Position numbers and translations under genes: made by a program. The notes beneath the pieces are model-generated. The model had not been told where the DNA came from and did not search any database. It saw only the letters and a list, made by a program, of their open reading frames with translations. From Dehalococcoidia bacterium (GTDB taxonomy: Bacteria > Chloroflexota > Dehalococcoidia > UBA2979), in NCBI GenBank assembly GCA_965247895.1, contig OZ252046.1, forward strand, positions 1,975,155 to 2,039,154: 64,000 bases of DNA, in the 5' to 3' direction. Shown one piece after another: positions 3,053 to 47,600 of the stretch (positions within the stretch are counted from its first letter, which is position 1; every line of letters begins with the position of its first letter).

Positions 3053-3187
3053 GCGTCGCCTCCTTCGCGCCGGTACGCCGCCGCCGCGCTGGCGCAGCGT
3101 ACGACAGGCCCGAGGAGGGTGCAGGCCCCGGAGCGGGCGCGAGTACAATCGCCTGCGGGAAGATCCGAAGCCGGTACGGGGGCCCGC

Positions 3188-5296
3188 ATGAACGAAGAGC
3201 AGAGCGCGCCCCCTGAGACGCACTTTGACGCCGACCGCCCAATTGAACGTCGTGAGCAGGACCGCCTGGGCAGGCGGTCCTTTGCCGAGGCGATCGCGAA
3301 GCAGATCCTCGCCGTTCCCGCTGCACAGGGATTCACCATGGCGGTTGTGGGTGAGTGGGGAGCCGGCAAGACATCGGTACTCAACATGGTCGCCGAGACA
3401 GTCGCGGGCGACGACGGCGGCCCGGCCATCCTCCGCTTCAACCCGTGGCTCTTCAGTAGTGCGGACGACCTAGTGAGGCGGTTCTTCACTGAACTTGGCG
3501 CACAGCTCCATCAAAGACAACACCCGGGGCTGAAGGACGTGACGACGGCACTGTTCGAGTTCGCCGAATCTGCAGCACCACTGATCCCCATGCCCGGCGC
3601 GGTCCCGGCGGTGAAGCTGCTGAGTAAACTCACCAACCGCTCGACAAGACCACCGAGCCTACTTGAGACGCGTAGTCGACTCAGCCAAGCTCTCGCTAAG
3701 TCTGGTTCGAGGATCGTTGTCCTCATTGATGACATCGACCGGCTTGAGCGCCGCGAGATACGCGAAGTGATGCGATTGGTGCGCCTGACATCTGATTTGC
3801 CAAACCTTGTCTTCTTGCTCGCATTCGATAGGGCCCGTGTGGCGAGCAGCCTGAACTGGGACAAGGACGGGGACGACGGCCAACAGTACCTGGACAAGAT
3901 TGTTCAAGTGAGCCACGACGTCCCCGTGGCACGCAAGGCGACCCTGACCGACATGCTCATAGCCGGGCTCAATGAGCTTATCGAGGCACGCGATCTTGGG
4001 GACCCCGACCGGGAAGTGTGGGTGAGCGTCCTCTACGAAATGCTGAGGCCGCTCCTTGGTAACCCCCGGGACGTCAAGCGCTACCTGTACTCGCTGCCCG
4101 TGACCCTCGACGCTGTCGGGCACGAGGTGGCGCTGGCTGACCTGCTCGGGCTAGAAGCGGTTCGGGTCCTCAGACCGAAAGTGTTCGACGACTTGAGGGC
4201 ACACGCCGACTACCTCGTGCACTCGGAGTCCCGAGCGCAGCTCTTCATGACACAAGACGAATTCAAGCGGAAGGTTCGGGACGAGCTCACGGCAATGCTT
4301 GAGCGTGCTGCAGGTGACCGCGTGCTGTTGGAGTCCGTGCTCAGGACTCTGTTCCCGGTGACGCAAGAGTTCCTCTCCAGCACCAGCTACGGTCCCATGT
4401 CGGACGGATCTTGGCGAAGGCAGCGACGTGTCGCTTCCGGCGAAGTGTTACGCATCTACCTGCAGGCCGCGCTCGACGAGGTAGCACTTCAATCGAGTGA
4501 GGTTCAGGAGCTAGTAGACGCCCTCACTGACGAAGATAGGCTTTCCCAGCTGCTCGACTCCTTCGACGACCAGCGCTTCGAGGAGGCCCTCGAACGTCTC
4601 GGGGACTTCGAGTATGAGTTGCCTTCCGAGGCCCTGCCGGCAGCTGTACCCGTGCTCGTGAATAGGATGGGAGGGCTCAGTGAACGCTCTGCAGCGCCGT
4701 TCGAACTCTCACCGCGACGGAAGGCATACCGTGTCGTTCTGTTCATTCTTCGACGAGTCGCGGACAAAGCAGCCCTCGCGGGCTCCTTGCCCGCGGTGCT
4801 GGCGAAGATCGATTCCTTGTCGGGATGGCTGGAGGTGGTCGAATTGGTTGGCCACCGCGATCGAGTTGGACCGCAACTCGTCGACATCGCGGACGCGACG
4901 AAGCTCGAACATCAGCTGGTCGAACGACTGAGATCAGCATCGGCGCGGGAACTTGCGGGCGAGTGGAGCCTCGCACGTTTGTCAATGCGGGCGCTGGCTT
5001 GGCTTGAGGGTCAGGACAAAGACCGGCTCGCCGGGCGACTGCGCGAACACCTCAGTGAAGACGGATTCGTTCTCACTCTGCTCCACACGAGCGTCGGCTA
5101 CGCATACTCCGGCAGCGATGTTCGTAAGCTTCTTTCTTGGGACGCCCTCGTGGAGGCGTTCGGTGATGAACTCCCCGATGCGGTCGACAGACTCACCCGC
5201 TCTCAAATCTACGAGGACGCATCGGACGACGATCGCGACACCATCGATCTGGCTCGGAAGTACGCGTCGGGCGAGCGCCCAGACGAATGGGAGTAG
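3188..5296 (+). CDS. KAP-family P-loop NTPase (large predicted NTPase, ~700 aa)
   Basis: Start MNEEQ at 3188 inside the longer ORF 3119-5296. Walker A (VVGEWGAGKTSVLNMV) and Walker B-like (IVVLIDDIDRL) motifs with KAP-type spacing, plus a long alpha-helical C-terminal region. Local GC is visibly lower than in the flanks (many A/T-ending codons between 3480 and 5300). Confidence 0.7.
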   Translation: MNEEQSAPPETHFDADRPIERREQDRLGRRSFAEAIAKQILAVPAAQGFTMAVVGEWGAGKTSVLNMVAETVAGDDGGPAILRFNPWLFSSADDLVRRFFTELGAQLHQRQHPGLKDVTTALFEFAESAAPLIPMPGAVPAVKLLSKLTNRSTRPPSLLETRSRLSQALAKSGSRIVVLIDDIDRLERREIREVMRLVRLTSDLPNLVFLLAFDRARVASSLNWDKDGDDGQQYLDKIVQVSHDVPVARKATLTDMLIAGLNELIEARDLGDPDREVWVSVLYEMLRPLLGNPRDVKRYLYSLPVTLDAVGHEVALADLLGLEAVRVLRPKVFDDLRAHADYLVHSESRAQLFMTQDEFKRKVRDELTAMLERAAGDRVLLESVLRTLFPVTQEFLSSTSYGPMSDGSWRRQRRVASGEVLRIYLQAALDEVALQSSEVQELVDALTDEDRLSQLLDSFDDQRFEEALERLGDFEYELPSEALPAAVPVLVNRMGGLSERSAAPFELSPRRKAYRVVLFILRRVADKAALAGSLPAVLAKIDSLSGWLEVVELVGHRDRVGPQLVDIADATKLEHQLVERLRSASARELAGEWSLARLSMRALAWLEGQDKDRLAGRLREHLSEDGFVLTLLHTSVGYAYSGSDVRKLLSWDALVEAFGDELPDAVDRLTRSQIYEDASDDDRDTIDLARKYASGERPDEWE

Positions 5297-9854: not shown

Positions 9855-10312
9855 GCGGCGAGCCGCGCGCGCAGCGCTACTGGGACGACGTGACGGCCGG
9901 CGAGGACCTTGAGGGCTTCTCGTTCACACTCGGCTGGACGGAGATGGCGAAGCAGGTCAGCGGCTCGCAGGACTTCCACAAGGTCCATCACGACTTCGAG
10001 TTCGCCCGCGAGGGCGGACACGAGACGATCTTCTTCAACACCGGATTCACGCGCGGCTGCCTGGGACGGATGCTCACGGACTGGATGGGCCCGGAGGGCT
10101 GGCTCAGGACGTTCGGCTTCCAGATGCGGCGCATGAACACGCCGGGCGACGTGATGTCCGTGAAGGGCCGCGTCACCGGCAAGACCGAGGGCGACGATCC
10201 CGCCACGGGCGTTGTCGACATCGACATCTGGATCGAGAACACTCGCGAGGGCGTCACGACGCCCGGCACGGCGACAGTGCTGCTGCCGCGACGCAGCCCG
10301 GCGCAGGGCTGA
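9851..10312 (+). CDS. MaoC-like (R)-hydratase hotdog-fold subunit
   Basis: ATG at 9851 in the same frame as ORF 9299-10312. HKVHHDFEFARE and GFTRGCLG region typical of MaoC dehydratases; forms a pair with the upstream gene. Confidence 0.65.
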   Translation: MSGEPRAQRYWDDVTAGEDLEGFSFTLGWTEMAKQVSGSQDFHKVHHDFEFAREGGHETIFFNTGFTRGCLGRMLTDWMGPEGWLRTFGFQMRRMNTPGDVMSVKGRVTGKTEGDDPATGVVDIDIWIENTREGVTTPGTATVLLPRRSPAQG

Positions 10313-10330
10313 ACCGAGGGGACGTACACG

Positions 10331-10801
10331 ATGGCGAACGCGACCAGGGCCGAGATCGAGGCGGGCGGCACGTACTTCCCGCAGCTCGTCGCCTTCCCCG
10401 CGACGAGTAACGACGACCTCGACAAGCCGTTCATCGAGGGCACGCAGCGCGGCGAGCTGTGGGTGCAGTACTGCCCCGCGTGCGAGCAGCATCAGTGGGG
10501 GCCGGAGTGGATCTGCTACCGCTGCCTCTCGGACGACCTCGATTGGCGGCAGGTGGATGGGCGCGGGCGGCTCTTCTCCTGGGAGCGGGTCTGGCACCCC
10601 GTACACCCCGCGCTCGCCGAGGCGGTCCCCTACGTGATCGTCGTCATCGAGCTGCCGGACGCCGATGAAATCCGCATGGTCGGCAACCTGCTCGGCGACC
10701 CCGAGGAGGACATCGTGATCGGCAGCGATGTCGAGGCGGTGTTCGAGCACCACGCGGACGCCGACCCACCGTTCACCCTCGTCCACTGGTCGCGCGTCTA
10801 G
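10331..10801 (+). CDS. DUF35 Zn-ribbon/OB-fold protein (ChsH2-C-terminal/Ltp2-partner type)
   Basis: C-x2-C...C-x2-C (CPACEQHQWGPEWICYRC) followed by an OB-fold-like region; position after the hotdog pair is as in the ChsH2 arrangement. Confidence 0.65.
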   Translation: MANATRAEIEAGGTYFPQLVAFPATSNDDLDKPFIEGTQRGELWVQYCPACEQHQWGPEWICYRCLSDDLDWRQVDGRGRLFSWERVWHPVHPALAEAVPYVIVVIELPDADEIRMVGNLLGDPEEDIVIGSDVEAVFEHHADADPPFTLVHWSRV

Positions 10802-13930: not shown

Positions 13931-14596
13931 TCAGATCAGCGCGACTCGGTAGGCCGTCAGGATCTCCTCGACGTAGAGCCGGGCGGCGCCCGCATCGAGG
14001 TTCTGGTCGCCAGGCGGCACCGGGAGGCGGTCCATCACTTCCTCGAAGCAACCGTCCGGGCAGCGATCAGAGAAGAACATGTAGGCGAACCCCTCGGGCT
14101 CCCGATGCGAGCGCCACGTCATGCCACGGGCCCAAGGCGCCCACGCCCGAATCGCCGAGGCCCAGCGCCGCGTCATCGCGTATTCGGCGGCGGATGAGTG
14201 TGTCAACGACGTGTCCTGACCCACCGCCGCCAGGTCCCGGCCGGACCGAAGGCCCACCAGCTCCAGGTCCAGCGTTGTGCGCAGCCAGCTGATTCGCAGT
14301 CCGGAAAGGCGAGCGCGCGGGAGCAAGCGTGCCCCGCGGTCATCGATCTGCAGATCGCGGAGCAGCGCTTCGGAGACTGCGGTCGCATCGTCCGCAGCGG
14401 CGTACAGGAAAGCGTACTCATCGTCCGGCGTCGAGTCGAACCGTCCGCCGAGGAGATCGCTTCGAGCCACGGTCGGGTTGAACCCGGTCACGTCAAAGTC
14501 AGCGCTGTGGATGCGCGTCAGCCTCGTCCCCGCGGGCAACGGGAAGAGCCGCGGCGCGCCCTCATAGCTTGTCGGGGGCGGCTGGTTTGGCGACAA
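13931..14596 (-). CDS. RES-domain toxin (MbcT/ParT-like NAD+-targeting toxin family)
   Basis: LGGRFDSTPDDEYAFLYAAADDATAVSEALLRDL and ...WRSHREPEGFAYMFFSDR blocks match the conserved R/E/S-bearing motifs of RES domains. Immediately downstream of an Xre/DUF2384-type gene. Start is TTG at 14596 per the ORF track and is uncertain. Confidence 0.7.
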   Translation of the reverse strand: MSPNQPPPTSYEGAPRLFPLPAGTRLTRIHSADFDVTGFNPTVARSDLLGGRFDSTPDDEYAFLYAAADDATAVSEALLRDLQIDDRGARLLPRARLSGLRISWLRTTLDLELVGLRSGRDLAAVGQDTSLTHSSAAEYAMTRRWASAIRAWAPWARGMTWRSHREPEGFAYMFFSDRCPDGCFEEVMDRLPVPPGDQNLDAGAARLYVEEILTAYRVALI

Positions 14597-14602
14597 GCCC
14601 GC

Positions 14603-15322
14603 CTACCCGATCGGCTCGATGACCGCCTCGGCCACCGTGGCGAGGTCGTCCGCTCTGTCGGTCCCGACAAGGTCGACGGGCCGGGCGCCGAGTCGTGCGT
14701 GGCGGGAGACCCACCAGGACGCGACGCCCCACGGGTCACTCGCAGCCTCCAGCCGTTCGTTGACCGCGCGCACTTCCGTGAATACATCGCGCCGCCGCGG
14801 GTCGAACTGGAAGGCGGGGTACAGATAGCCGCGGGCGGCGGGCAATCCAAGCAGCCACGAGCGCTCGCGGTAGCGCCGGACCTTCTCGCGATTCGTGCGG
14901 TTCGCCCCGAGCGCGAGTGCAGCGTCTCGCGGCTCAAGCATCGGCTCACGCCAGATCGTGCGGATTGCCTCTCCCTGGACCTGGGCCTGCAACAACACCG
15001 TTTGCTCGACCTCGTCGAGCACGTGCCGTGGCTCTCCTCCAAGCTCCCGGCTGAGGTCGCTCCGCAGCGTGAGCAGCGTCAGCCAACTCCGCAGCCGGGA
15101 CTCGTCCCCGTCCAGTGCGTGGTGCCGTGCCGCGAGCGACGCCGCGGCATCGAGCAGTTCCGATTCCCGTGCCGGCCACTCGGCTGCGAGATGCGCCAGC
15201 ATGTTCCGCGCTGTGCTCGCCCGCCGCGAGGCGAGGGTCAGGAGCGCCTGCTCGAGATCCTCGTCGCTGAGTTCCCGGTCCAGGTCCCGGATACGACTGT
15301 CGAGTTCGGGCCGGATCGCCAT
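14603..15322 (-). CDS. RES-partner antitoxin, Xre/MbcA/ParS type (C-terminal DUF2384 toxin-binding domain)
   Basis: C-terminal ...PWGVASWWVSRHARLGARPVDLVG is the hallmark DUF2384 motif; 6-bp gap to the RES gene on the same strand. Confidence 0.65.
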   Translation of the reverse strand: MAIRPELDSRIRDLDRELSDEDLEQALLTLASRRASTARNMLAHLAAEWPARESELLDAAASLAARHHALDGDESRLRSWLTLLTLRSDLSRELGGEPRHVLDEVEQTVLLQAQVQGEAIRTIWREPMLEPRDAALALGANRTNREKVRRYRERSWLLGLPAARGYLYPAFQFDPRRRDVFTEVRAVNERLEAASDPWGVASWWVSRHARLGARPVDLVGTDRADDLATVAEAVIEPIG

Positions 15323-15446
15323 CGCGGTCTCCAGGCTGACGGTAGTGCCAACATCATAGCATCGTCACAATCGTCACGCACAAGGCGCGCAACCACTGGC
15401 AGGCTGGATGTACTGAGCAGCGCCTACGTCAGCGCCTCGGCGGCGC

Positions 15447-16814
15447 TTACCCGCTCCGCTTGGCCAGCGCGCGGGCGTCGAGGCGGCTCGCCGGATCGGC
15501 GCGCCCATCGGTGTCCAAACTCATGCCCTCCGCCCGGAGCACGTCGACCGGGTCGCGGCTGTCGGAGGGATCGCCCCAATAGAAGCCCTCCGAGACCCGT
15601 CCGTCGGCGTTCAAGACACGGTAGCCGATCCGGCACGCATCCTCGGGGCAGCGGGCGATATGTCCGGCGACCGCCTGCGCCGAGCTGTCGATCGCTTCCG
15701 CGAGATCGCCGTAGGTGGTCCACTCGCCGGGACGAACGTGCCCCAGCAGCCCGTGGAGGAGCGACCAGTCCCGGCCCTCCACGGCAGCGCGCGAGCCCGC
15801 CAGGGCCTTGAGCGTCTCACCGCTCGCCGTCCTCCACGCCCTCGGACCGGATATGACCGTTGGCCGCTCGCCGGTCACCCGCTCCACGATCTCCTTCGCC
15901 AGTCCCGTCGGACTCCAGGCGTCGCCATCGAGTTCCCAGATCAACGGCGCGCGCGGATCGTTGCGCCAGGTTGCGCGAGCGCGTCGCGGTTCTGCGACCA
16001 CCCACTCGCCGACCTGTTCGCGCAAAGCCGACGACAGGCGGAGGGCGCGCACCTCAAGCTCCAACTGCGCGCCGTCCTCGATCACGCCCTCGGCAACCAG
16101 TGTCGCGACGGCGGTCCGTTCGCGGCGCGTGCGTACACGCTCGTCGGCTGCTCGAAGCTCCACCTGCCGCGGGGAGACCGTGAAGTCCTCGACGTCCTGC
16201 ACCGGCCACGTCTGTGAGACCGTCAACACGACGTCATGCTCCGTGCGATATGCGTTGAACTCGATCAGCGCGATGTCAACGCCCATCTCGGTAAGCCACA
16301 CCGCGCTCGCGGTGACTTGCGGCGGGAAGCTCGCCGCCATCAACGCTATGCGCGGCTGGCGGAGCTGGTCAGGATCGAGCTCACCGCCGGCGTGCTCCTC
16401 CATCCGGGCGAGGGCGTCCTCGGCCGACACTGCTTCGCCGCTGACCCGCGAGAGGTAGGCCGCGTGGGCCTCGGCCAGCGTCTGCGGGGTGAAGCGGCTG
16501 GCGAACGCCGCATACTTGATCGCCTGCATCTCGACGGTGTCTGGAGCAGGGCCACGCTTCAGCTCGGCGACCACGAGACGTCCGTCGTCGTCCAGTCCCA
16601 GCAGATCGAGGCGATCAGCCGCACGCCCGTCGCGCGAGCGCCAAGCGCCAAACTCGAAGGTCACGATGTAGACGCCGTCGCCGAGGATCTCCGGGTTCTC
16701 GCGCACCCACTCCTGCAGATCGGACCGCTCGCGGAGTCCCGCGTCCGCGAGGCTGATCGCTTGCGCGCGCCGGGCGATGCCCGGCTCCACCGTGAAGACC
16801 AGTTCACCCGCCAC
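15447..16814 (-). CDS. hypothetical fusion protein: N-terminal PD-(D/E)xK nuclease-like (NucS/DUF91-like) domain plus C-terminal MGMT/ATL-like alkylguanine-binding DNA-binding domain
   Basis: N-terminus: D-x(n)-LDDDGRLVVAELKRG gives a D...E-x-K arrangement with preceding DLQEWVRENPE, as in NucS-C/DUF91. C-terminus: WTTYGDLAEAI...AQAVAGHIARCPEDACRIGYRVLNADGRVS resembles the MGMT/Ogt DNA-binding domain (YG.LA...RAVG.A...NP..P.HRV.), but the usual PCHRV Cys is not obvious. Both domain assignments are by eye, without a profile search. Confidence 0.45.
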   Translation of the reverse strand: MAGELVFTVEPGIARRAQAISLADAGLRERSDLQEWVRENPEILGDGVYIVTFEFGAWRSRDGRAADRLDLLGLDDDGRLVVAELKRGPAPDTVEMQAIKYAAFASRFTPQTLAEAHAAYLSRVSGEAVSAEDALARMEEHAGGELDPDQLRQPRIALMAASFPPQVTASAVWLTEMGVDIALIEFNAYRTEHDVVLTVSQTWPVQDVEDFTVSPRQVELRAADERVRTRRERTAVATLVAEGVIEDGAQLELEVRALRLSSALREQVGEWVVAEPRRARATWRNDPRAPLIWELDGDAWSPTGLAKEIVERVTGERPTVISGPRAWRTASGETLKALAGSRAAVEGRDWSLLHGLLGHVRPGEWTTYGDLAEAIDSSAQAVAGHIARCPEDACRIGYRVLNADGRVSEGFYWGDPSDSRDPVDVLRAEGMSLDTDGRADPASRLDARALAKRSG

Positions 16815-16882
16815 CAGACAGTCCCTCCCGCGCCCGGCGCAGACTACGGAACGCCCGAGGGCATGTCACTGCCAGCGGAAGC

Positions 16883-19336
16883 CTACGTCAGCGCCTCGGC
16901 GGCGGCGGCGGCGGCGATCTCCGCGGCGTCCATGCCGAGCAGCTCCTCCAGCACGTACTGCGTGTCCTCGCCGAGCGCGGGGGCGGCCTTGCGCAGCACG
17001 GCCGGCGTCTCCGAGAAGTGCGTCGCGAGGCCGTCGTAGGGCGTCGGGCCCATCACCGAGTGGTCGAGCGTCACGAAGAAGCCGCGATGCGCGAGCTGCT
17101 CGTCCTCGTAAAGATCGCTCGGGCGCTGGACGACGGAGGCGGGCACGCCGGCTCCGCGCAGCGTCTCCGCGAGGCGCCACGGATCCTGACCCTCGCACCA
17201 GGCAGCGAGGGCGGGCTCGATCTGCTCACGGGCGGCGAGGCGCGCCGAGGCGTCCTCGTAGCGTGGCTCGGCGAAGGCGGAGAGCGCGCCGAGTCCGAGC
17301 AGCGCGCGCCACTGCGCGGCCGTCTGCACCTCGATCGCGACGTAGCGCTCGATGCCCGCGGTGCGGTAGACGCCGTGCGGGCAGCTGGTCAGCGAGCGCA
17401 GGCCGACGGGCCCGGCGACCCGCCCGTTCACCGTGTAGTCCAGCATCAGCGGCTCGATGAAGTGAATCGCCGCCTCCACCTGCGCGAGGTCGATGTGCTG
17501 GCCGCGTCCGCTGCGGTTGCACTCGAAGAGCGCTCCGGCGAGCGCGGCGAGGCCGTAGCGCGGGTTGATGAAGTCCGTGTACGCCCCCCAGGGACTGCAC
17601 GGTTCGCGATCCGGCCACCCGAGGATGCCGACGAAGCCCGACAGCGCCGCCCCGTGGCTGCCGAACCCGCGGAAGCTCCGCAGCGGCCCGCTCGCGCCTC
17701 GCATCGAGGTGCTGAGCATGATCAGCTCCGGGCGCTCGCGGCTCAGCTCCTCCCAGCCAAGCCCGAGCCGCTCCGCGACGCCGGGCGTGAAGCTCTGCGT
17801 GACGATGTCCGCCCAGTCGCAGAGCCGCCGCGCCAGCGCGATGCCCTCCGCGGTGCGAAGGTTGATCGCCGCGCCGAGCTTGGAGGAGTTGTAGTTGGCC
17901 ATGAACTGCGCGCGGTCGATGCCGGGGATGCCGTCCTTGTAGGGCGGGTTCAGCCTGATGCCGTCGACCCGGGTCAGGGACTCGACATGGACGACGGTGG
18001 CGCCGTGGTCGGCGAAGGCCTTGCTGATGATCGGCCCCACGCCGAACCAGGCGAAGTCCGCGATCTTGACGCCCTCGAACGTCAGGCCGCGCGAGCCATT
18101 CGCGCGCGCGGCGGGTCGCACCGGCTCGCGGCGCTGCTCCAGCAGCGCGTTCGCCTCGCCCAGCCGCGGGGGTGGCGCCTCGGGACCGAGCGCGGAGCGC
18201 GACAGCCGGGCGAACGGGCCGGGGTAGCTGCGCCTGTCGATCTCGCGCCAGTACTCGCGGGAGCGCAGCTGCGGATCGTTGTGCAGATCTTCGGTCGTGT
18301 TGATCGGCGCGATCATCAACGTCACCTGCACGGCGCGCTCGACCAGCTCGAGCTTCGTCTTGCCCTCGAGGAAGGCGACCGCCAGCCTGATCGCCTCGTT
18401 GGCAGTGTCGAAGGGCAGCTCGCCCTGCTCGTAGAGGGTCTGCCACTCGAACCAGTCGACCGCCTTGATCGGATCGGGCAGGCCCTGCTCCTCGTCGAGC
18501 CAGGCGAGCGCGTTGGCGAGCGTCTGCCAGCCCGCCGGGCCCGAGGCGATCGTGATCAGCACCAGCCCGTCCACGCAGTGCAGCAGCGTCGGCAGTTCGA
18601 GGCCGGCGACGGTGATCGGCGAGGTGAACCCGGCGCTCGCGGCGCGCTGCTCGCCGGTGCCGGGCGGGTCGCGGCCCTCGAGCGGCGGGAAGCCCGTGGC
18701 ATGCATCAGCGTCCAGACCATGCACGCCTGCATCGAAACGTCGAGGTGCTGGCCGAGACCGGAGCGATCGCGCTCGCAGAGCGCGACGACGGCGTCCGCC
18801 GCGGCCTGCGCTCCGGCGTGGAAGGCGGCCTGCGGGTAGCCCATCGGCAGTGGCGGGCGGTCGCCGTCGCCCTGCAAGCCCACCAGACCGCCGGCCGCCT
18901 CGACAGTGAGGTCGGTCGCCGGCGCGAGCGCGAGCGGCCCGTCCTGCCCCCAGGGCGTGATCGAGGCGTAGATCAGGGAGGGGTTGAGCGTGCGCACGTC
19001 CTCGTAACCCAGCCCGAGCGTTGCGAGCTGGCCCGGCGCGTGCGACTCGATCAGCACGTCGCTGCCCGCGATCAGCGCGCGCAGGCGCCTGCGATCGGCC
19101 TCGTCCTCGAGGTCCACGGTGACGCTGCGCTTGCCGAGGGCGACGGCCGCCCAGTAGAGCGAGTCGCCTTGCCCCACCGCGGTCTCGTCGAAGGGCGGGC
19201 GCGAGCGGCCCGGATGTCCGCCGGGCGGCTCGATCACGATCACCTCGGCGCCGAGGTCGGCGAGCACGCGCCCGGCGAGCGCGCCGTGCATGGTCGCGAG
19301 GTCGACGACGCGGACGCCGTCGAGGGGGCCGGGCAT
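16883..19336 (-). CDS. double-domain family-III CoA-transferase, paralog of 6798-9278 (817 aa)
   Basis: Collinear with the other double-CoA-transferase and about 60-70% identical by eye; start overlaps the upstream SDR stop (ATGA). Confidence 0.8.
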   Translation of the reverse strand: MPGPLDGVRVVDLATMHGALAGRVLADLGAEVIVIEPPGGHPGRSRPPFDETAVGQGDSLYWAAVALGKRSVTVDLEDEADRRRLRALIAGSDVLIESHAPGQLATLGLGYEDVRTLNPSLIYASITPWGQDGPLALAPATDLTVEAAGGLVGLQGDGDRPPLPMGYPQAAFHAGAQAAADAVVALCERDRSGLGQHLDVSMQACMVWTLMHATGFPPLEGRDPPGTGEQRAASAGFTSPITVAGLELPTLLHCVDGLVLITIASGPAGWQTLANALAWLDEEQGLPDPIKAVDWFEWQTLYEQGELPFDTANEAIRLAVAFLEGKTKLELVERAVQVTLMIAPINTTEDLHNDPQLRSREYWREIDRRSYPGPFARLSRSALGPEAPPPRLGEANALLEQRREPVRPAARANGSRGLTFEGVKIADFAWFGVGPIISKAFADHGATVVHVESLTRVDGIRLNPPYKDGIPGIDRAQFMANYNSSKLGAAINLRTAEGIALARRLCDWADIVTQSFTPGVAERLGLGWEELSRERPELIMLSTSMRGASGPLRSFRGFGSHGAALSGFVGILGWPDREPCSPWGAYTDFINPRYGLAALAGALFECNRSGRGQHIDLAQVEAAIHFIEPLMLDYTVNGRVAGPVGLRSLTSCPHGVYRTAGIERYVAIEVQTAAQWRALLGLGALSAFAEPRYEDASARLAAREQIEPALAAWCEGQDPWRLAETLRGAGVPASVVQRPSDLYEDEQLAHRGFFVTLDHSVMGPTPYDGLATHFSETPAVLRKAAPALGEDTQYVLEELLGMDAAEIAAAAAAEALT

Positions 19337-20172: not shown

Positions 20173-20336
20173 AGCCCCACCTCCAGCCGCTCGAAAAAGC
20201 GTACGACCTGCGCGAACCGGGTGTCACGGAGCCCGGTGGACACGCGCCGGTCGCTCTGGCAGTCGCGGCGCGTTATGGCGCCGCCGATCCGATCGACGCG
20301 TGCGGCTCCATCTCGCCGCGCTGGCGCGCGGCGGAC

Positions 20337-21660
20337 CCCTCACCCCCGCCCTCTCTCCCACGAGGGGTTAGACACCCCATGGTGCTAACTGGTCAAGCGG
20401 CGAGCTGCTCGCGGTCGTGGCGGTGCGCCCAGGCGGTGGCCTCGTCGTAGGGGCGGCGTGTCCTGAGGCAGCCGTGGAGGTAGCCGACGAGGCGGTTGGC
20501 GAGGGCGCGCAGCGCCTGGTGATGGAGGTCGCCCGCAGCGCGCCGGCGGCGGTAGAAGTCGTGGCAGCCCGGGCTCGCCCGCAGCGAGCACAGCGCCCAG
20601 CGGTCGGCGGCGTCGGCGAGCCAGCGGTTGCGGACGAAGCGGGCGCGCACGCTGCGTTTGCGGCCCGATGCTACGGTCAGCGGTGAGGTGCCGGCGTAGT
20701 TCCTGCGGGACTTCGCCGACTCGTAGCGTTCGGGGTCGTCCCCGAACTCTCCGAGCACCCGGGCGCCGAGCACGACACCGAGTCCGGGCAGGGAGCGGTA
20801 GATCGCGGCGTCCGGGTGCTGCTCAAAATGTGCCAGCTCGGCCTCGAGCTCCTTGATCTGGCGGTTGATCTCGCTGATCTGCGCGACGGCCGCGCGGGTG
20901 CTCGCGGCGAACGCCCTGCTCACGGCAGCAGGCGCCTCGAGCTGCGGGGAGCGCAGCGCGTCGCGGACCACGGCGGCGCGCTGCTCGAGGTTGCGCTGGC
21001 GGCCGCCGCGGCTGAGCGCCGAGCGGATCTTTGCGGTCGACAGCCGCGCCGCCTCGCGCGGGCCGGGCGCCCGGGCCAGCACGCCGACGGCGTCGCCGTG
21101 GGCGAGGTTGGGGAAGGCCACCAGGGCGGCCGGGAAATACTCCCTGAGGGCGTTGCGCAGCCGGTTGGTCTGGCGGACGCGGTCCCAGATCAACTGCTGG
21201 TGGGCGCGGGCGAGAATACGCACCGCGGCGGCCTCGTCGCTGTCGCCGGCCACCGGGCGGTGGTTGTGGCGGTCGGTGCGGACGAGGTCGGCGAGCAGCT
21301 TCGCGTCGCCGGCGTCGGACTTGGCGCCGCCGACATGGTGACGCTCGCGGTAGCGCGCCGCCGAGCGCGGGTTGATCGCGTAGACACGGTAGCCGGCCGC
21401 GAGCAGGGCCGAGACCCAGGGTCCGCGGTCGATCTCGATCCCGATGACGACTTCGCCCGGGTCCGAGGCGTGCTCGGCGATCAGTTCGTGCAGGGCGGCG
21501 ACGCCCGCGACGCCTTCGGGCAGCCGCCTGGCGGCGAGCCGTTCGCCGGCCTCGTTCATGAGCTGGATGTCGTGGTGGTCCTCGGACCAGTCGTCGCCAA
21601 CGTACAGGGTCATCGTGCCTCGCTTCCCTCCGCTTCGTGCTGCTGGCTGCGACCCGGTGG
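20337..21660 (-). mobile_element. IS110-family insertion sequence (IS-A), complete copy
   Basis: Carries the transposase gene 20393-21613. Its right end (~20337, CCCCTCACCCCCGCCCTCT...) is shared with a second, truncated copy at 47712. No obvious terminal inverted repeats, as usual for IS110. Left end approximate. Confidence 0.7.
20393..21613 (-). CDS. IS110-family transposase (DEDD + Transposase_20 domains)
   Basis: MTLYVGDDWSEDHHDIQLMNEAGE... N-terminal DEDD block; C-terminal ...GLGVV...RYESAKSRRNYAGTSP.T.ASG...R. pattern typical of IS110/IS1111 transposases. Start at 21613 within ORF 20393-21712. Confidence 0.8.
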   Translation of the reverse strand: MTLYVGDDWSEDHHDIQLMNEAGERLAARRLPEGVAGVAALHELIAEHASDPGEVVIGIEIDRGPWVSALLAAGYRVYAINPRSAARYRERHHVGGAKSDAGDAKLLADLVRTDRHNHRPVAGDSDEAAAVRILARAHQQLIWDRVRQTNRLRNALREYFPAALVAFPNLAHGDAVGVLARAPGPREAARLSTAKIRSALSRGGRQRNLEQRAAVVRDALRSPQLEAPAAVSRAFAASTRAAVAQISEINRQIKELEAELAHFEQHPDAAIYRSLPGLGVVLGARVLGEFGDDPERYESAKSRRNYAGTSPLTVASGRKRSVRARFVRNRWLADAADRWALCSLRASPGCHDFYRRRRAAGDLHHQALRALANRLVGYLHGCLRTRRPYDEATAWAHRHDREQLAA

Positions 21661-21676
21661 GCTGGTCCTGCGACGG

Positions 21677-23397
21677 CCTAATGGAACAGTGCTCTCGGGC
21701 ACGACACCCCATGAGTGCTTCTATGAGGGACGGTCTTTCCGCAAGGCCGACGTGGCGGCCTCCTCCGGGTACGGTGCTCCTCCTGGTCGCTGCGAACCGC
21801 TCGTGATGTCCGGTAGCGGAGCCTGTGCCGAGCTTCTATTCGCACTCTCGATGGGCCACGCATCGGGCCCGGTGCATGAAGGCACATCCTGCTTCCAGGG
21901 GGCGCTGCCAGCTGCGCGGACGTCCTCGGTGGGACAAGCACTCTGTCGCAGTCGCCCGTGTTCGGCATCACGTGCGAGGCTTCGCTCGCGCTCGGGTATT
22001 CCTTCCTGATCTCCGGGTCTGCTGCCCGGTCGCGATTGTCGCCCCCGCTACGCGGACCCCCGGGCTGCGGCGTGACGTAGCGGTTCGTAGACCTCGCCGC
22101 TCTTCCACAGCGCGAGCAGCAGCACCGACAGCCGCCTCGCGACGGCCACGACGGCGCGCTTCTTCGCGTTACGCGCCCCGGTCCCCGCGTAGCGCTCACC
22201 CCAGCGGCGCAGGTCGGTATCGGGCCCGAAGGGACCGAGGATGTAGTGCGCGGCCTGCACGAGCAGCCGTCTCAGACCCGGATCGCCGCTCCTGCTGATC
22301 CCGAGCTGCGATTCGCGCTCCCCCGAGTCGCGCTGCGCCGGCACGAGCCCGAGGTAGGCGCCGACCTCCCGGTTCTTCGGGAAGCGGGCGGGATCCTCCA
22401 CCGTTAGCACGAACGTGAGCGCGGTGATCGGGCCCACGCCGGTGACCTGGCGCAGCGCCGCGGTCTCGGGGTGAGCCTCGCACAGCGCCTCAACCTCCCG
22501 GCCGGCTGCCGCGATACGGGCGGTCAGCTCGCCAATCGCCTCCACCAGCGGCAGCAGCGCCGGGCGTAGCCCATCGGGGATGTGGTCCGCCACCTTGCGG
22601 TGGAAGGCCTCGGACGTGCACGACGGCAGCGCGGCTCCGCAAGCCTTGACTGCCCCGCGGACATGGTTGATGAGCAGCGTCCTGGTACGCACCAGCGCGT
22701 CGCGGGCGCGCACCACGGCGAGGTCATGCTGGCTCTGCTCGCTGCGGTGGCGGATCGGGGCGAGCAGCTCCGGGTCGAATCGCCCCAGCCGCGCCAGCCA
22801 CTCGGCGTCGAGGCGGTCGGTCTTGCGCTGGTTGCGGGCGATCAGCGCAACCTGGCGGGGGTTGGCGACGACCACCTCGTGGCCGAGGTCCGCCACGACG
22901 CGGCTCAGCCACGGCGAGCGCGGCCCCGCCTCGAGCACGACCCGCGCCGGCGGGAGGTCCTCCAGTGCGCCGCTGAGCGCCGCCGCCGCGGTGCGGACGC
23001 CCCGCTCACGCACCGCCTCGCCGCCGCTACCGAGGACGCTGACGTGGGTGTAGCGGTCTCCCACGTCGAGGCCGACGGTGAGTGCATGCCCATCCCTGCC
23101 CTCAATGCTCCGCGTCGTTGCGATATCCTGCTGCATGGCCGGTCTCCTACCTCGTCAAGGCTCCGCAGAGAGCCGTTTCTGGCCCATCGAGGCCGTTGTT
23201 TCGGGGACGAGTATCCCCCTGAGGAGGAGGCCGGCCCTCATGCCAGCTGCGGACAACCCGGACGTACCAGCCGGGGCACGGTCTCTCCCGAGAGATCCCG
23301 AGGTCTCAGGGAGCCACAGTGCTCACCGGCCGGCCGGTCCGGGACCAGTCTCCCAGATCGCTCCGGGGTTCCGGTCGAACCCCATTAGGGAGCCGGA
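21677..23397 (-). mobile_element. second, different IS110-family element (IS-B) inserted next to IS-A
   Basis: Carries the transposase gene 22048-23136. Left end CCTAATGG (21677) and right end CCATTAGG (23382-23389) are an 8-bp inverted pair. Both ends are found fused together as a ~190-bp internal-deletion derivative at 48467-48658. Confidence 0.6.
22048..23136 (-). CDS. IS110-family transposase
   Basis: LTVGLDVGDRYTHVSVL DEDD N-terminus; C-terminal helix-hairpin-helix region (ALRQVTGVGPITALTFV...) typical of IS110-family proteins. Confidence 0.75.
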   Translation of the reverse strand: MQQDIATTRSIEGRDGHALTVGLDVGDRYTHVSVLGSGGEAVRERGVRTAAAALSGALEDLPPARVVLEAGPRSPWLSRVVADLGHEVVVANPRQVALIARNQRKTDRLDAEWLARLGRFDPELLAPIRHRSEQSQHDLAVVRARDALVRTRTLLINHVRGAVKACGAALPSCTSEAFHRKVADHIPDGLRPALLPLVEAIGELTARIAAAGREVEALCEAHPETAALRQVTGVGPITALTFVLTVEDPARFPKNREVGAYLGLVPAQRDSGERESQLGISRSGDPGLRRLLVQAAHYILGPFGPDTDLRRWGERYAGTGARNAKKRAVVAVARRLSVLLLALWKSGEVYEPLRHAAARGSA

Positions 23398-23454
23398 CCG
23401 CCATCGAGACGGGAGCTCGCAAAGCTCTCCAAGGGGCGAGGGGACCGGGCGCGG

Positions 23455-26776: not shown

Positions 26777-27019
26777 ATGGTGCTCAAGCACTTCCGCGCC
26801 AGGTTCTCGAAGGGCGTCCTCGAACCCCTCGAGGCGATCGATCTCGAGGAGGGCGCCGAGGTGTCGGTGTCCATCGAGAAGGAGCCCTCGGCGACGCGCA
26901 ACCTTGAGGCATTCCGCCGCGCCGCAGGCGGCTGGAAGGGCAACTCCGATCCTGAGGAACTGAAGCGGATGATCTACGAGGCACGGATCGCAGGCTCACG
27001 GGAACCGCCGGACCCGTAG
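26777..27019 (+). CDS. DUF104/AF2212-like antitoxin (VapB-type), copy 2
   Basis: Same family as the previous gene; ends 4 bp before the PIN-domain gene. Confidence 0.6.
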   Translation: MVLKHFRARFSKGVLEPLEAIDLEEGAEVSVSIEKEPSATRNLEAFRRAAGGWKGNSDPEELKRMIYEARIAGSREPPDP

Positions 27020-27023
27020 CTTC

Positions 27024-27416
27024 GTGCGGTATCTGGTGGACTCGGACTGGGTCATCGACTATCTGCACGAAGTCGAGCAGACGGCCGGGCGTCTCAATGA
27101 GTTGGCCCCTGATGGCCTGGGTCTGAGCATCGTGTCGCTGGCCGAACTCTACGAGGGCTTGTTTCACTCGCGAAGACCCGAGGCCGATGAGCGGATTCTG
27201 CGGGGCTTCCTGTCCGGCGTGGAGGTAGTGGACCTTGATGAGGAGATCTGCCGGATATTCGCGAGGGAGCGTGGTCGCCTGAGATCCGCCGGGATGCTGA
27301 TTGGAGACCTCGATCTCCTCATAGCCTCCACGGCGCTGCGACACGGGCTGACGCTGCTCAGCAACAACCGGCGGCACTTCGAGCGGATCGAGGGGCTGGC
27401 GATCGAGTCGGTCTGA
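27024..27416 (+). CDS. vapC: PIN-domain ribonuclease toxin VapC
   Basis: YLVDSDWVIDYL... acidic PIN residues, LIASTALRHGLTLLSNNRRHF C-terminal signature; GTG start. Confidence 0.7.
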   Translation: MRYLVDSDWVIDYLHEVEQTAGRLNELAPDGLGLSIVSLAELYEGLFHSRRPEADERILRGFLSGVEVVDLDEEICRIFARERGRLRSAGMLIGDLDLLIASTALRHGLTLLSNNRRHFERIEGLAIESV

Positions 27417-43405: not shown

Positions 43406-43852
43406 GTGTATGTGATACCAGAATTCGAAGCTGGCGGACTCCTCCCACCCGGAGTCCACTGGGCGACCTGGGACGAATTAGTCGAGAGATTCGGGACGAA
43501 CCCGTGGAGGCAACACCTCTTGACCGGACTCAGAGCCGCACTGGAGAACCTGCAAGTCGCGGGCTGCCGGACCGTCTACCTCGACGGGAGCTTCGTGACG
43601 AGCAAGGCGGTCCCGAACGACTACGACGCCTGTTGGGAAGAGGCAGGCGTCGATCCGGATGTCCTCGATCCCGTTCTCCTGACCTTCGACCCCGGGCGAG
43701 TGACGCAGAAGGCCAAGTACCTGGGGGAGTTGTTCCCTGCGTCGTTCGTCGCCGATCAGGACGGGCTGTCGTTCCTTGAGTTCTTCCAAGCGGACAAGGA
43801 CTCCGGGGAGCCCAGGGGGATCATCGCGATAGACCTGGGAGGCCGCATGTGA
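43406..43852 (+). CDS. minimal nucleotidyltransferase (MNT/pol-beta superfamily; DUF6932-like?)
   Basis: GS-x9-DxD motif (YLDGSFVTSKAVPNDYD) typical of pol-beta-type NTases. 148 aa; low-GC leader; stop overlaps the next start (ATGTGA). Confidence 0.5.
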   Translation: MYVIPEFEAGGLLPPGVHWATWDELVERFGTNPWRQHLLTGLRAALENLQVAGCRTVYLDGSFVTSKAVPNDYDACWEEAGVDPDVLDPVLLTFDPGRVTQKAKYLGELFPASFVADQDGLSFLEFFQADKDSGEPRGIIAIDLGGRM

Positions 43853-44259
43853 TCAAGAACGAGCGCCAATACCGGATCACCAAGACCCAGGCGACCCGCT
43901 TCGCGCAGACCCTGGAGAGCCTCGCGAGGCGCGCCGACGAAGACTCGGGGATTCACCCCCGTATCGCCCAGGCTCGGGAGGACGCGCTGAGAAGCCAGCT
44001 CGGAGACCTTGAACGGGAGTTGCGCGAGTACGAGTCCTTGAAGGCGGGTGGATTCGAGCTCGACGAACTGAACGTGTTCGCTGAGCTGGCAACGTTCCTG
44101 ATCAAGGCACGGATCGCGCGGGGCCTGAGTCAAAGGGAGCTGGCGGACCGCATCGGGTTGAAGGAACAGCAGATCCAGCGCTACGAGGCCACCGATTACG
44201 CATCCGCCAGTCTGGCCCGGATCAAGGAGGTCGCGAGCGCCCTGGGCGCGACTGGCTAG
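43849..44259 (+). CDS. XRE-family HTH protein with N-terminal coiled-coil region (candidate partner of the NTase)
   Basis: C-terminal HTH_3 signature (RGLSQRELADRIGLKEQQIQRYE); translationally coupled to the upstream NTase. Confidence 0.55.
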   Translation: MIKNERQYRITKTQATRFAQTLESLARRADEDSGIHPRIAQAREDALRSQLGDLERELREYESLKAGGFELDELNVFAELATFLIKARIARGLSQRELADRIGLKEQQIQRYEATDYASASLARIKEVASALGATG

Positions 44260-44646: not shown

Positions 44647-47600
44647 TCAGTAGTTGCCCAGGAAGACGATCGTCCCCTCGGCCGTCACTGCCGCGGTGTG
44701 GTAGTGCCCGGCGCTCACGTCGATGAAGGAACCCTCGGGCAGTGAGTTGGTATCGAAGGAGTCATCGAGCCAGCACTCCACGGCGCCCCCGGCCGCCGCG
44801 CCGCAGGTGAGAGTCGGCCCCGCAGTCCTGTAGGGAAAGTCCTTGCCCCAGCATCTGATCGAGCCGTCCGCCTTCACGCCGCAAATGTGCGTCTTAGCCG
44901 AGCTGATCGATGTGAACGTGCCAGCGGGAGGCGTGGTCCGGTCGGAAACGTGCGGGGGGCCCCAGCACGAGATGGTGGCGTCGCTTCTCAACCCGCATGA
45001 ATGCGAACCACCAACCGCGACCGCGGTAAACGTCCCGTCCGGGGGCGTGATCCTGTTGCTGTCGTAGATGTCGTAGCCCCAGCATGCGACGGAGCCGTCG
45101 GTCCGCACTGCGCATGAGTGGTCTTCTCCAGCGCTGACGGAGCTGAAGGAGCCGTCCGGCGACGCAGTCCGGCCGTAGGCGCTGCTACCCCAGCATGTCA
45201 GTTCGCCGCTGGTTCTCACCGCGCAGGTGTGTACTTTTCCGGCGCTGATGGAGACGAACGTGCCGTCGGGCTCAGCAGTCTGACCCCTCTTCCCCCAGCA
45301 GTCGACCGAGCCGCCGGTTCTCAGTCCACACGTGTGGTACTGCCCGGCGCTGACGGCCGTGAAGGATCCCCCGGGCGGGGTGGCTTGCCCGATGAACTCG
45401 CCCTCGAGGTTCTGGTCTGAGCCCCAGCACTCGATCGCGCCGTCTGTCATCAGCCCACACGTATGGTGCTCGCCGGCGCTGACGGAGATGAAGGACCGAG
45501 TTGCGGAACCGGCCTCCCGATCCACGGTTCCAGCGGCCGAGTCGCCGGCGGCGGGTGAGCCCGTCGCGGAGAACGAGGGCTTCGACAGGATTGAGTCCAG
45601 GCCCCAGCACGCGACTGTTCCATCGGGTCGGAGGCCGCACGTGTGGCGCCACCCGGAGGTGACCGATGTGAAGGAGCCCCCGGCCGGTTCGGCCAGACCG
45701 CCGGGTTCGAAGTCTCGGGCCTCCTCAAGAGTCCAACACACGACCGAGCTGTCGGTCATGACCCCGCAGGTACCGGCCAGCCCGGCGCTCACGGATGTGA
45801 AGGGGCCGGGATGGAACGTCGTTACCTCGGTGTGGTTGTGAGGCTTCCAGCAAATCACCGAGCCATCCGTGAGCACCCCGCAGGCATGGAAGAACCCGGA
45901 GCTGATGGATATGTATCGACCCTCGGGCGTCTCCTCGGGGTCGGCCGTGTCGAAGCCCCAGCATGCCGTGGAGCCGTCCGCTCTCAATCCGCAGCTGTAG
46001 TTAGCGGCGCTGAGCTCGATGAAGGATCCATCCGGCGGCGACGTCAGGCCGTTCTGATCAGGACCCCAGCAGGTGACCGAGCCGTCTGCCTGGATCCCGC
46101 AGCTGTGAAACCATCCGGCGCTGACGGCCACGAACGAACCCGAGGGCGGCGTTGCCCGCCCCGCGAACTCCCCGTCCCGTCCCTCGTTGGATCCCCAGCA
46201 CAGCACGGAACCGTCGGTCCGCACGCCACAGGAGTGCTGCCGTCCGGCGCTCACGGCCGTGAAGGAACCGCCGGGCGGCGTGGCCTGACCCAGGCGATCA
46301 TCGCCCCAGCATGCGACGGCCCCGTCGGTCCGTACCCCGCAGGTGTGGTAGAACCCCGCGCTCACCGAGGTGAACGACCCGGCAGGCGGCGTGGCCTGCC
46401 CGTAGTCCGCGATGTTCCAGCAAATCAGCGAGTCGTCCGTCCTCACACCGCAGACCTGGTCCGTTCCCGCGCTCACCGAGCGGAAGGGGCCATCGGGAGC
46501 GGTGCCCAGGCGATTGAGGTCGAGCCCACCGCCTTCGGAGGGAACCCAACACGTCACAGAGCCGTCGCTTTGCAGCCCACACGAGTAGAAGTCGCCGGAA
46601 CTGATGGATGTGAACGAACCCGCGAGCGGTGTGTGTGGGCCAAGGTCGTCGCCCCAGCACACGACGGAGCCTTCCGTGTCGAGCGCGCAGGTGTGTCTCT
46701 GCCCGGCGCTGAGGGCCGTGAACGACCCGGTTGTGGGTGCATCGCGCTGGCGGTAGTAGTTGTCTCCCCAGCAGGTGATCGAGCCGTCGCTCCGCAGCCC
46801 GCAGCTATGGATCCACCCGGCGCTGACGGAGGTGAACGTGCCCTCGGGCGCTGACTGCTGCTCTTCGCCCCAACACACGACCCGGCCGTCGCCCCTCACC
46901 CCGCAGGTGTGAGCGTCTCCGGCGGCGATCGCAACAAAAGCCTCGACGGGTGGCGTGGCCTGCCCCTTGAAGTACCCCGCACTGTCGTTCGATCCCCAGC
47001 ATGCGACCGAGCCGTCGGTTTGGATGCCGCAGGTGTGATGGAGCCCGGCGCTGACGGAGACGAAGGAACCGGGCGGCGGGGTGGCCTTGCCGACAAAACC
47101 GCCGTCCTCGTCCAGGTTGGAGCCCCAGCAGATGACCGAGCCATCGGTCTTCACGCCGCACGCGTGATCCCTCCCGACGGTGACGGACGCGATGGACCTT
47201 GCAGTGGGACGAGGCGTAGGCAGGACGCGGGGCGTCGCGGCGGGTTCTGCCGTGGACTCCGGTGCCGCCGTCCCTTCCGGCACGGACCCGACCTGCTGGT
47301 CGCCGCCATCGAGCGTGGCGAGGACGAGCAGCACTACCACCACTATAACCACAACGACCGAGCCGCCCAGCGCCGCGCCCGTCCACACGAGCGGACGCCC
47401 GAGAGATTCGAGCGTCGCAGGCAGAGCGATGAACCCGAGCACGCGCCGGCGCTCGGGACGCCAAGCGGCGAGCTGCTCGCGGTTGTCGAGCTCGAGCTTC
47501 CCGAGCATGTTCGAGATGTGGTACTTGACGGCGTCGAGGCTGACGCCGAGTCGCTCCGCGATCTCGGCGTTCGTGCCGCCCTTGCGCAGCTCGTTGAGCA

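Follow-up and report, generated by a model that had tools for sequence, protein, structure and literature searches.

The gene and its modules

We analysed a gene in a window of 64,000 nucleotides from a Dehalococcoidia bacterium (assembly GCA_965247895.1, contig OZ252046.1, positions 1,975,155 to 2,039,154 of the forward strand; coordinates below are those of the window). The gene encodes a fusion protein in which a NucS-like nuclease is followed by a RAMA-like domain and an alkyltransferase-like (ATL) domain, and our preferred reading, at a probability of roughly 0.55, is a single-polypeptide restriction nuclease of a type-IV-like kind that detects modified DNA through its ATL and RAMA modules. 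The gene and its elements, from the start of the protein to its end, are:

15447..16814, minus strand: the whole gene, from the open reading frame list; 455 amino acids, GTG start, TAA stop; NucS-like nuclease, RAMA-like and ATL-like modules
16823..16829, minus strand: Shine-Dalgarno-like GGGAGGG, 8 nt upstream of the GTG, read from the sequence
16200..16814, minus strand: NucS-C-type PD-(D/E)xK nuclease module, residues 1-205, equivalent to the N-terminal module of PADLOC PDC-S11
16557..16616, minus strand: catalytic D...ExK, residues 67-86 (D67-R-L-D70...E84-L-K86), from conserved columns and the NucS alignment
16512..16526, minus strand: QxxxY motif Q-A-I-K-Y, residues 97-101, after the ExK strand, from conserved columns
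16080..16199, minus strand: linker, residues 206-245, dominated by one long helix (215-242); pLDDT 63-88
15780..16079, minus strand: RAMA/SAND-like DNA-binding domain, residues 246-345, with invariant W271, W283, W293 and W327
15450..15779, minus strand: ATL/MGMT C-terminal winged-helix domain lacking the acceptor cysteine, residues 346-455
15633..15662, minus strand: H385-x3-C389-x(2-4)-C394, residues 385-394, with H354 a putative Cys2His2 metal site
15615..15629, minus strand: I-G-Y-R-V, residues 396-400, in place of P-C-H-R-V of O6-alkylguanine-DNA alkyltransferases (AGTs); Gly397 at the acceptor-cysteine position in the alignment to 1mgt

The original prediction, made from the sequence alone, had placed this open reading frame exactly and had described its product as a two-domain fusion; it overlooked the RAMA/SAND-like domain between nuclease and ATL domain, and the protein has three modules. 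An AlphaFold2 model of the 455-residue protein, built from the family alignment, is confident (predicted local distance difference test, pLDDT, 89.3). Homologues of 445-475 residues align with the protein from end to end, which supports the GTG start call; an exact-sequence look-up of the 455-residue protein returned no match.

A NucS-type nuclease with an intact active site

Residue conservation was counted over 98 full-length homologues of the fusion protein. Residues D70, E84, K86 and Q97 are present in all 98 and D67 and Y101 in 97, and with them the D...(D/E)xK plus QxxxY signature, within a restriction-endonuclease-like core fold; the QxxxY motif is common to NucS and RecB-type nucleases. 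Thirteen positions of the module (E29, E35, E54, D67, R68, D70, E84, L85, K86, R87, Q97, K100 and Y101) are each occupied by the same residue in 96-98 homologues, and in the family profile the segment “lDlLgld.dGrLvvaELkR” aligned with NucS residues 159-181. An active site that is complete and invariant makes it almost certain, as judged from sequence, that the nuclease module is catalytically active. The Pfam family NucS_C fell below threshold on the single protein (E 0.035, positions 3-54 only) and was matched in 69 of the 97 family members scanned against Pfam; the expectation of a NucS_C-like PD-(D/E)xK N-terminus was thus confirmed.

The protein is not an ordinary NucS homologue. Its score against the NCBIfam NucS equivalog model (E 2.9e-5, 23.3 bits against a cutoff of 216) is about one tenth of what that model demands, and of the NucS/EndoMS architecture only positions 3-54 of NucS_C were matched. 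NucS/EndoMS has an N-terminal domain for mismatch binding and dimerisation, which the fusion protein lacks; the sensors of the fusion protein are C-terminal and unrelated to those of NucS/EndoMS.

The closer assignment of the module comes from defence-system models: five PADLOC PDC-S11 models match it with E-values from 3e-47 to 1.9e-23 over residues 7-249. The PDC systems are 145 “guilt-by-embedding” candidates, chosen among genes that lie inside BREX, DISARM and type I restriction-modification loci; the name PDC-S11 is absent from the supplements of the paper describing that approach. PDC-S11 proper consists of a NucS-like N-terminus and DUF4268, and no DUF4268 was matched in the window protein by the Pfam scan. 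The same two-domain description applies to MdgA, a single-gene, modification-dependent antiphage nuclease (bioRxiv 10.1101/2025.02.28.640651). MdgA alone protects Escherichia coli from T4, though not from the unmodified T4-GT7, and also from Mu; the purified protein degrades T4 DNA in vitro; and its activity is abolished by E77A, the mutagenic primer placing E77 in V-I-V-E-N-K, an ExK motif (bioRxiv 10.1101/2025.02.28.640651). A metagenome scan with the sequence of that primer found nothing, and we compared MdgA with the fusion protein by its published description, not by sequence. On that footing both MdgA/PDC-S11 and the fusion protein are single open reading frames with an N-terminal NucS-type PD-(D/E)xK module and a C-terminal accessory domain presumed to recognise the substrate, neither needs partner genes, and the ExK glutamate lies at a similar position (E77 in MdgA, E84 here), whereas the DUF4268 of MdgA/PDC-S11 is replaced in the fusion protein by the RAMA and ATL-like domains. 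The match to PDC-S11, together with the NucS plus DUF4268 description shared by MdgA, supports a role in defence.

An ATL-like domain that has lost the acceptor cysteine

The original prediction of an MGMT/ATL-like C-terminus without an obvious acceptor cysteine was borne out on both counts. The Pfam family DNA_binding_1 (PF01035) passed narrowly on the single protein (28.6 bits against a curated cutoff of 27, E 1.2e-6) and was matched in 87 of the 97 members, and the domain has the corresponding winged-helix fold. Among solved structures the best match of the family profile is Schizosaccharomyces pombe Atl1 (3gva, E 7e-4), over chain residues 7-91 and across the whole ATL domain, with the Vibrio ATL next. 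Column 397, the acceptor position, holds Ala in 76, Gly in 17 and Val or Thr in 4 of the 98 homologues (one is unlisted), so that Ala or Gly accounts for 93 of them and Cys is not among the residues listed. Because the acceptor cysteine is missing, alkyl transfer is impossible, and we rejected an active MGMT as an identification.

What remains is the fold of the AGT C-terminal domain with the tyrosine that typifies ATLs: Tyr368, the equivalent of Atl1 Tyr25 and AGT Tyr114, occurs in 97 of the 98 homologues, R399 in all 98, and Val400 is also conserved. S. pombe Atl1, E. coli YbaZ and Vibrio vpAtl have the same fold and likewise no acceptor cysteine, and they share with the fusion domain the tyrosine that promotes flipping, the arginine after the cysteine position and a C-terminal “LE-EGV” element. 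These ATLs are, however, stand-alone proteins of about 110 residues that pass lesions to nucleotide excision repair, whereas the fusion domain is the tail of a nuclease; it further differs from them in a Gln or variable residue at the Arg-finger position, an altered pocket loop and an extra CxxC/His motif. At the position of the Arg finger (Atl1 Arg39, AGT Arg128) the window protein has Gln380, and this plug column holds Q in 44, R in 27, I in 18 and M in 5 of the homologues. Where AGTs and ATLs have the wall of the alkyl pocket there is a family-specific G-F-x-W-x-D loop; the pocket residues Y368, R399, F411, W413 and D415 are at least 94% conserved. H354 and the residues of the extra motif are 96-98% conserved (H354 in 98, H385 in 96, C389 in 97 and C394 in 96 of 98), with the form H-x3-C-xx-C in most members, and these four residues (window positions ~15633-15755) may form a structural site for zinc or another metal that is specific to the subfamily. 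We know of no such zinc site in AGT/ATL C-terminal domains, and C389 and C394 are missing from most of the relatives of the ATL domain that are fused to GmrSD.

These features bear on an alternative in which the protein is a DNA-repair nuclease: in the genome of the cell itself, O6-alkylguanine or bulky adducts of guanine would be located by the ATL domain, and the nuclease joined to it would incise alongside, a one-protein shortcut for the hand-off from ATL to excision repair and analogous to the archaeal AGT-EndoV and ATL-EndoV proteins. The true ATLs (Atl1, Vibrio ATL) as best solved matches, the conserved Tyr368 and Arg399, and the fact that NucS is itself a repair endonuclease all fit such a role, as do published AGT/ATL-nuclease fusions with repair activity (PMC10779285). 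AGT-EndoV of Ferroplasma acidarmanus and archaeal ATL-EndoV are a precedent for joining an AGT or ATL to an endonuclease (PMC10779285); unlike the fusion protein, EndoV has an RNase-H-like fold and a repair role without RAMA, and AGT-EndoV retains the active cysteine. The unconserved Arg finger and the remodelled pocket loop tell against repair, and so does a nuclease that belongs to a family of defence candidates, with MdgA, which has the two-domain description of that family, a verified antiphage nuclease. Taken with the comparative evidence given below, we consider a repair nuclease quite unlikely.

A RAMA-like domain between nuclease and ATL domain

Residues ~246-345 have the RAMA fold, as in CcrM and MPND. 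The Pfam RAMA family (PF18755) had no match at E ≤ 1 in the window protein and was not among the top families of the 97 members, of which 4 matched DUF4357 weakly; RAMA sequences are poorly conserved (PMC9963953). The domain takes its name, “restriction enzyme and adenine methylase associated,” from the association by which it was defined (PMC9963953; PMC11037411), and its presence in the fusion protein supports the defence reading for that reason. It has been suggested that fusions of RAMA to nucleases may be type IV enzymes (PMC11037411). Among them GIY-YIG-RAMA and RAMA-Mrr-NTPase carry, as the fusion protein does, a RAMA-fold domain on a restriction-type nuclease (PMC11037411); they have other nucleases and no ATL domain, and these proposed type IV enzymes are likewise uncharacterised.

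In the two solved cases, CcrM and MPND, RAMA binds the backbone of double-stranded DNA without sequence specificity (PMC9963953). A second alternative keeps the defence nuclease but drops the reading of base modifications: the RAMA and ATL modules would be generic DNA anchors, and the trigger would be some other cue, for example free DNA ends or intermediates of phage replication (cues proposed for Shedu), or else a phage protein. The conservation of the five pocket residues argues for a specific ligand of the ATL domain and against mere anchoring; further points against it are the repeated attachment of the ATL domain to GmrSD, a family defined by modification dependence, and the modification dependence of MdgA, which fits the NucS plus DUF4268 description of the PDC-S11 family. 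We hold this alternative to be unlikely.

Distribution of the family and exchange of its C-terminal modules

The original prediction had presented the domain combination as unlike any described repair or defence system, a view that has to be revised: there are more than 590 detectable homologues of the fusion protein, with 236 loci in representative genomes, the nuclease half is that of PDC-S11, and both PF01035-GmrSD fusions (PMC4619093) and AGT/ATL-EndoV fusions (PMC10779285) have been published. Already known, then, are the nuclease as a catalogued defence candidate and the presence of ATL-type domains on type IV enzymes; the literature searched did not yield the nuclease-RAMA-ATL architecture, its CxxC motif and distinctive pocket, or the wide range of effectors that have this ATL domain in common. 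The homologues belong mostly to the Chloroflexota (Dehalococcoidia, Tepidiformaceae) and Actinomycetota, with some in the Dormiibacterota, and are named “MGMT family protein” or “alkylated DNA nucleotide flippase Atl1” at their source. The window itself most resembles a Dehalococcoidia metagenome-assembled genome (locus L006), at 91% amino acid identity. Mean pairwise identity within the family is highest in the nuclease core (68%), intermediate in the ATL domain (53%) and lowest in RAMA (43%).

The family is modular. The same nuclease, at 55-65% identity, is found with other C-termini: with RAMA only (~344 residues); with a DUF6416-like domain (~340 residues); and, in a sister clade, with RAMA plus DUF4268 (~485-504 residues, DUF4268 at E 1e-18 to 1e-22; L032, L036 and L047). 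One nuclease occurring with swapped C-terminal modules is the reader/nuclease modularity typical of type IV enzymes. As a DUF4268 protein the nuclease module is present on 306 plasmids, 213 of them from Klebsiella, and nuclease-RAMA forms are found on Rhodococcus and Kocuria plasmids; the ATL-bearing form was found on no plasmid in PLSDB.

The ATL module in other effectors

A profile of the ATL domain alone was searched against 1.84 billion representative proteins, and it recovered 1177 clusters at E ≤ 1e-3 and 76 at E ≤ 1e-30. In a domain scan of 49 top hits with non-cognate architectures, DNA_binding_1 passed in 43. The type IV restriction domains GmrSD_C and GmrSD_N were found in 28 and 16 of the 49, respectively, RAMA in 3 (E down to 7.9e-20), DUF4357 in 3 and Mrr_N in 2, with PIN, AAA_5, TIR, STAND NTPase, OLD-TOPRIM and HEPN each in a single protein. 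A 2015 survey of GmrSD is in agreement: the additional domains that it lists for GmrSD homologues are DUF4268, DUF4357 and, chiefly in Streptomyces, DNA_binding_1 (PMC4619093). The ATL subfamily is therefore an accessory module that recurs among restriction and defence effectors.

The PF01035-bearing GmrSD enzymes, which are mainly from Actinomycetota (PMC4619093), carry the same cysteine-less ATL-like subfamily as the fusion protein, again appended to a restriction nuclease, and the two sets of domains have in common the motifs W-T-T-Y-G-D-L-A, N-A-[HYW]-R-V-L and G-F-x-W-x-D. They differ in that the GmrSD nuclease is of the His-Me/ParB type where that of the fusion protein is PD-(D/E)xK, and in that most GmrSD-fused ATL domains lack the H-x3-C-xx-C motif. 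The GmrSD and other defence domains carried by these relatives support a defence role for the fusion protein, and they weigh against repair, since the fusion partners of the closest relatives of this subfamily are restriction and defence effectors, not repair enzymes.

Genomic context

The features that adjoin the gene are:

15422..15445: 24-nt direct repeat, downstream copy, starting 1 nt after the TAA stop of the fusion gene
16881..16904: 24-nt direct repeat, upstream copy, in the last codons and stop of a CoA-transferase gene
13931-14596: RES toxin (Pfam RES, E 1.7e-14)
14603-15322, minus strand: RES partner, 239 amino acids, immediately upstream of RES with a 6-nt gap

The fusion gene bears several signatures of an accessory gene. 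Its G+C content at third codon positions (GC3) is 0.84, against 0.95-0.96 for the flanking genes for acyl-CoA dehydrogenases, CoA-transferase and short-chain dehydrogenase/reductase (SDR), and it lies in a low-GC3 block (0.79-0.84) with a membrane protein gene, RES and the RES partner; in relatives the values are 0.70-0.75 for the fusion gene and 0.93-0.95 for the core (0.75 against 0.95 in L007, 0.70 against 0.94 in L009). It diverges fast: identity to L007 is 73% for the fusion protein, 91-92% for the flanking acyl-CoA dehydrogenases and 81% for the SDR. It also decays, being truncated in L044 and L051, frameshifted in L020 and split by ~8 kb in L060. In this last, from the Dehalococcoidia, residues 1-185 are encoded at 10001-10564 and residues 174-340 at 18596-19090, with about 12 codons duplicated at the junction, which suggests that a mobile element inserted into the gene.

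The perfect 24-nt direct repeat GCCTACGTCAGCGCCTCGGCGGCG (100% identity, spacing 1459) brackets exactly the fusion gene and its 66-nt leader. The pair recurs in L006 at 88% identity and none was found in L007, L009 or L012; it resembles the trace that a cassette-like insertion or duplication would leave, and the unit contains no recombinase. Low GC3, fast divergence, decay in relatives, the bracketing repeat and the plasmid-borne nuclease module count for the defence reading, and foreign-like GC3, fast divergence, decay and a patchy distribution are at the same time points against a repair enzyme.

In L007, L008 and L010 the gene lies directly between the same pair of acyl-CoA dehydrogenase genes and the SDR gene, a syntenic and stable position among metabolic genes that would also suit a repair nuclease. 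The window lineage has gained insertions here: RES and its partner, the membrane protein gene, an extra CoA-transferase and two IS110 copies. The CoA-transferase, an 817-residue double family III protein (16883-19336, minus strand), stands between the SDR and fusion genes only in the window and L006, and is a 55-57% identical paralogue of the one across the acyl-CoA dehydrogenase pair in L007, L008 and L010. Two tandem IS110-family transposase genes (20393-21712 and 22048-23136, minus strand) fill a 3.2-kb insertion (~20230-23450) that is absent from L006, L007, L008 and L010.

Across 32 loci, for which neighbour gene calls in relatives are approximate, the immediate neighbours include Azaca ZacABC, McrBC, SoFic, AriA-like ATPases, DISARM/BREX-type helicases, a type I restriction endonuclease and integrases; for example, L002 has McrBC and a T5orf172 helicase, and L003/L023 and L026 have a DUF6361/Azaca-type operon with an integrase. 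The presence of defence genes among the immediate neighbours supports the defence reading, and at the several loci concerned it is a further point against repair.

The original prediction had also taken the adjacent genes for a RES-Xre pair and treated the nearness of a toxin-antitoxin module as a functional hint. RES is confirmed; its partner had no match in Pfam, NCBIfam or the PDB, and no Xre-type helix-turn-helix (HTH) or MbcA-ParS domain was detected by these searches. The partner has 357 homologues, mostly in Chloroflexota, all “hypothetical” and without a Pfam domain, and may represent a non-Xre family of antitoxins for RES toxins. A functional tie of the fusion protein to this module, for instance as third component or effector of a toxin-antitoxin system, could be argued from the shared strand (the fusion gene lies 124 nt upstream of the partner), the similar GC3 (0.82-0.84) and the same arrangement in L006. 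The RES pair is present, however, only in the window and L006; the adjacency is no evidence of function, since both RES and its partner are missing from L007, L008 and L010, which do have the gene. The neighbours that recur across the 32 loci include no RES domain, and the 24-nt repeat delimits the fusion gene alone. The comparative data largely refute a functional link to RES, which we regard as extremely improbable.

A candidate type IV restriction nuclease

No methyltransferase lies next to the fusion gene in the window, where the neighbours are the CoA-transferase, the SDR, the RES pair and IS110; the protein thus has the architecture of a type IV enzyme, a nuclease with a DNA-reader domain and no cognate methyltransferase, and the missing methyltransferase supports the defence reading. 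Of the roles suggested at the outset, type-IV-restriction-like reading of DNA is favoured by the comparative evidence, and a damage-repair nuclease is less favoured.

We propose that the RAMA and ATL modules would keep the enzyme on DNA while the ATL pocket, remodelled by the G-F-x-W-x-D loop and with a variable plug position, flips a base out and inspects it. A non-host modification on the flipped base would then lead the nuclease to cut nearby, probably as a dimer, as in NucS. In this proposal the host's own DNA does not carry the mark, which makes a methyltransferase or an immunity partner unnecessary; for an ATL-derived pocket, a guanine-derived phage modification would be the natural guess as to the target. 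The logic would resemble that of EndoMS, a base-flipping sensor with a PD-(D/E)xK cutter, the sensor having been swapped for RAMA and an ATL-derived pocket. The data establish the folds, the intact active site, the lost capacity for alkyl transfer, the modularity of the family, the associations of each module and the marks of an accessory gene; that the protein flips bases, depends on modification and cleaves as a dimer, and what its ligand is, are points that we infer.

Several observations weigh against this interpretation. Canonical ATLs act in repair, and the Arg finger that defines base flipping in AGTs and ATLs is Gln here and not conserved in the family, which makes base flipping less secure. 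Proteins of the nuclease-RAMA-ATL architecture are so far candidates only, and PDC-S11 is itself a “guilt-by-embedding” candidate; the membership of MdgA in PDC-S11 is inferred from the domain description and the ExK motif, not from an alignment. Many neighbours across the 32 loci are metabolic, and several Dehalococcoidia genomes keep the gene at one syntenic place amid genes of lipid metabolism, a pattern that would suit housekeeping repair as well. A proposed preference of RAMA for N6-methyladenine or otherwise modified DNA was not reproduced in vitro (PMC9963953).

If the type-IV-like reading is right, antiviral nucleases of Chloroflexota and Actinomycetota from soil and the subsurface have recruited a repair sensor (ATL) as their recognition module, and several hundred proteins labelled “MGMT family protein” or “Atl1 flippase” would gain a concrete function; on current evidence these labels wrongly imply alkylation repair. 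The same ATL sensor on at least half a dozen defence effectors points to a common phage DNA mark that the modules read, and knowledge of the ligand could bring to light new chemistry in phage DNA and provide a reader or nuclease that acts on modified guanines by base flipping.

A broader and distinctly speculative extension, which we think doubtful, is a large-scale conversion of the ATL sensor fold into an immune receptor for guanine-derived phage hypermodifications. The cysteine-less ATL domain would flip 7-deazaguanine derivatives or O6- or N2-substituted guanines and thereby license its fused effector, the NucS-like nuclease here and GmrSD, PIN, TIR or a STAND NTPase elsewhere. The fusion protein would then be a type IV enzyme specific for guanine modifications, a specificity class with almost no characterised members, and the family could supply a reader, already at hand, with which to map such modifications.

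Other features of the window

Over its whole length the window is core metabolic sequence interspersed with accessory islets. A 725-residue KAP-family P-loop NTPase (3119-5296, plus strand) has the lowest GC3 in the window (0.71) and is likely acquired and possibly related to defence. There are two low-GC3 modules of two genes each, AF2212-like with PIN (a VapBC-type toxin-antitoxin pair; 26777-27416, plus strand) and DUF6932 with HTH_3 (43406-44259, plus strand). A 1005-residue protein (44647-47664, minus strand; GC3 0.82) combines an N-terminal LuxR/GerE HTH with about 15 RCC1 repeats, an unusual architecture.

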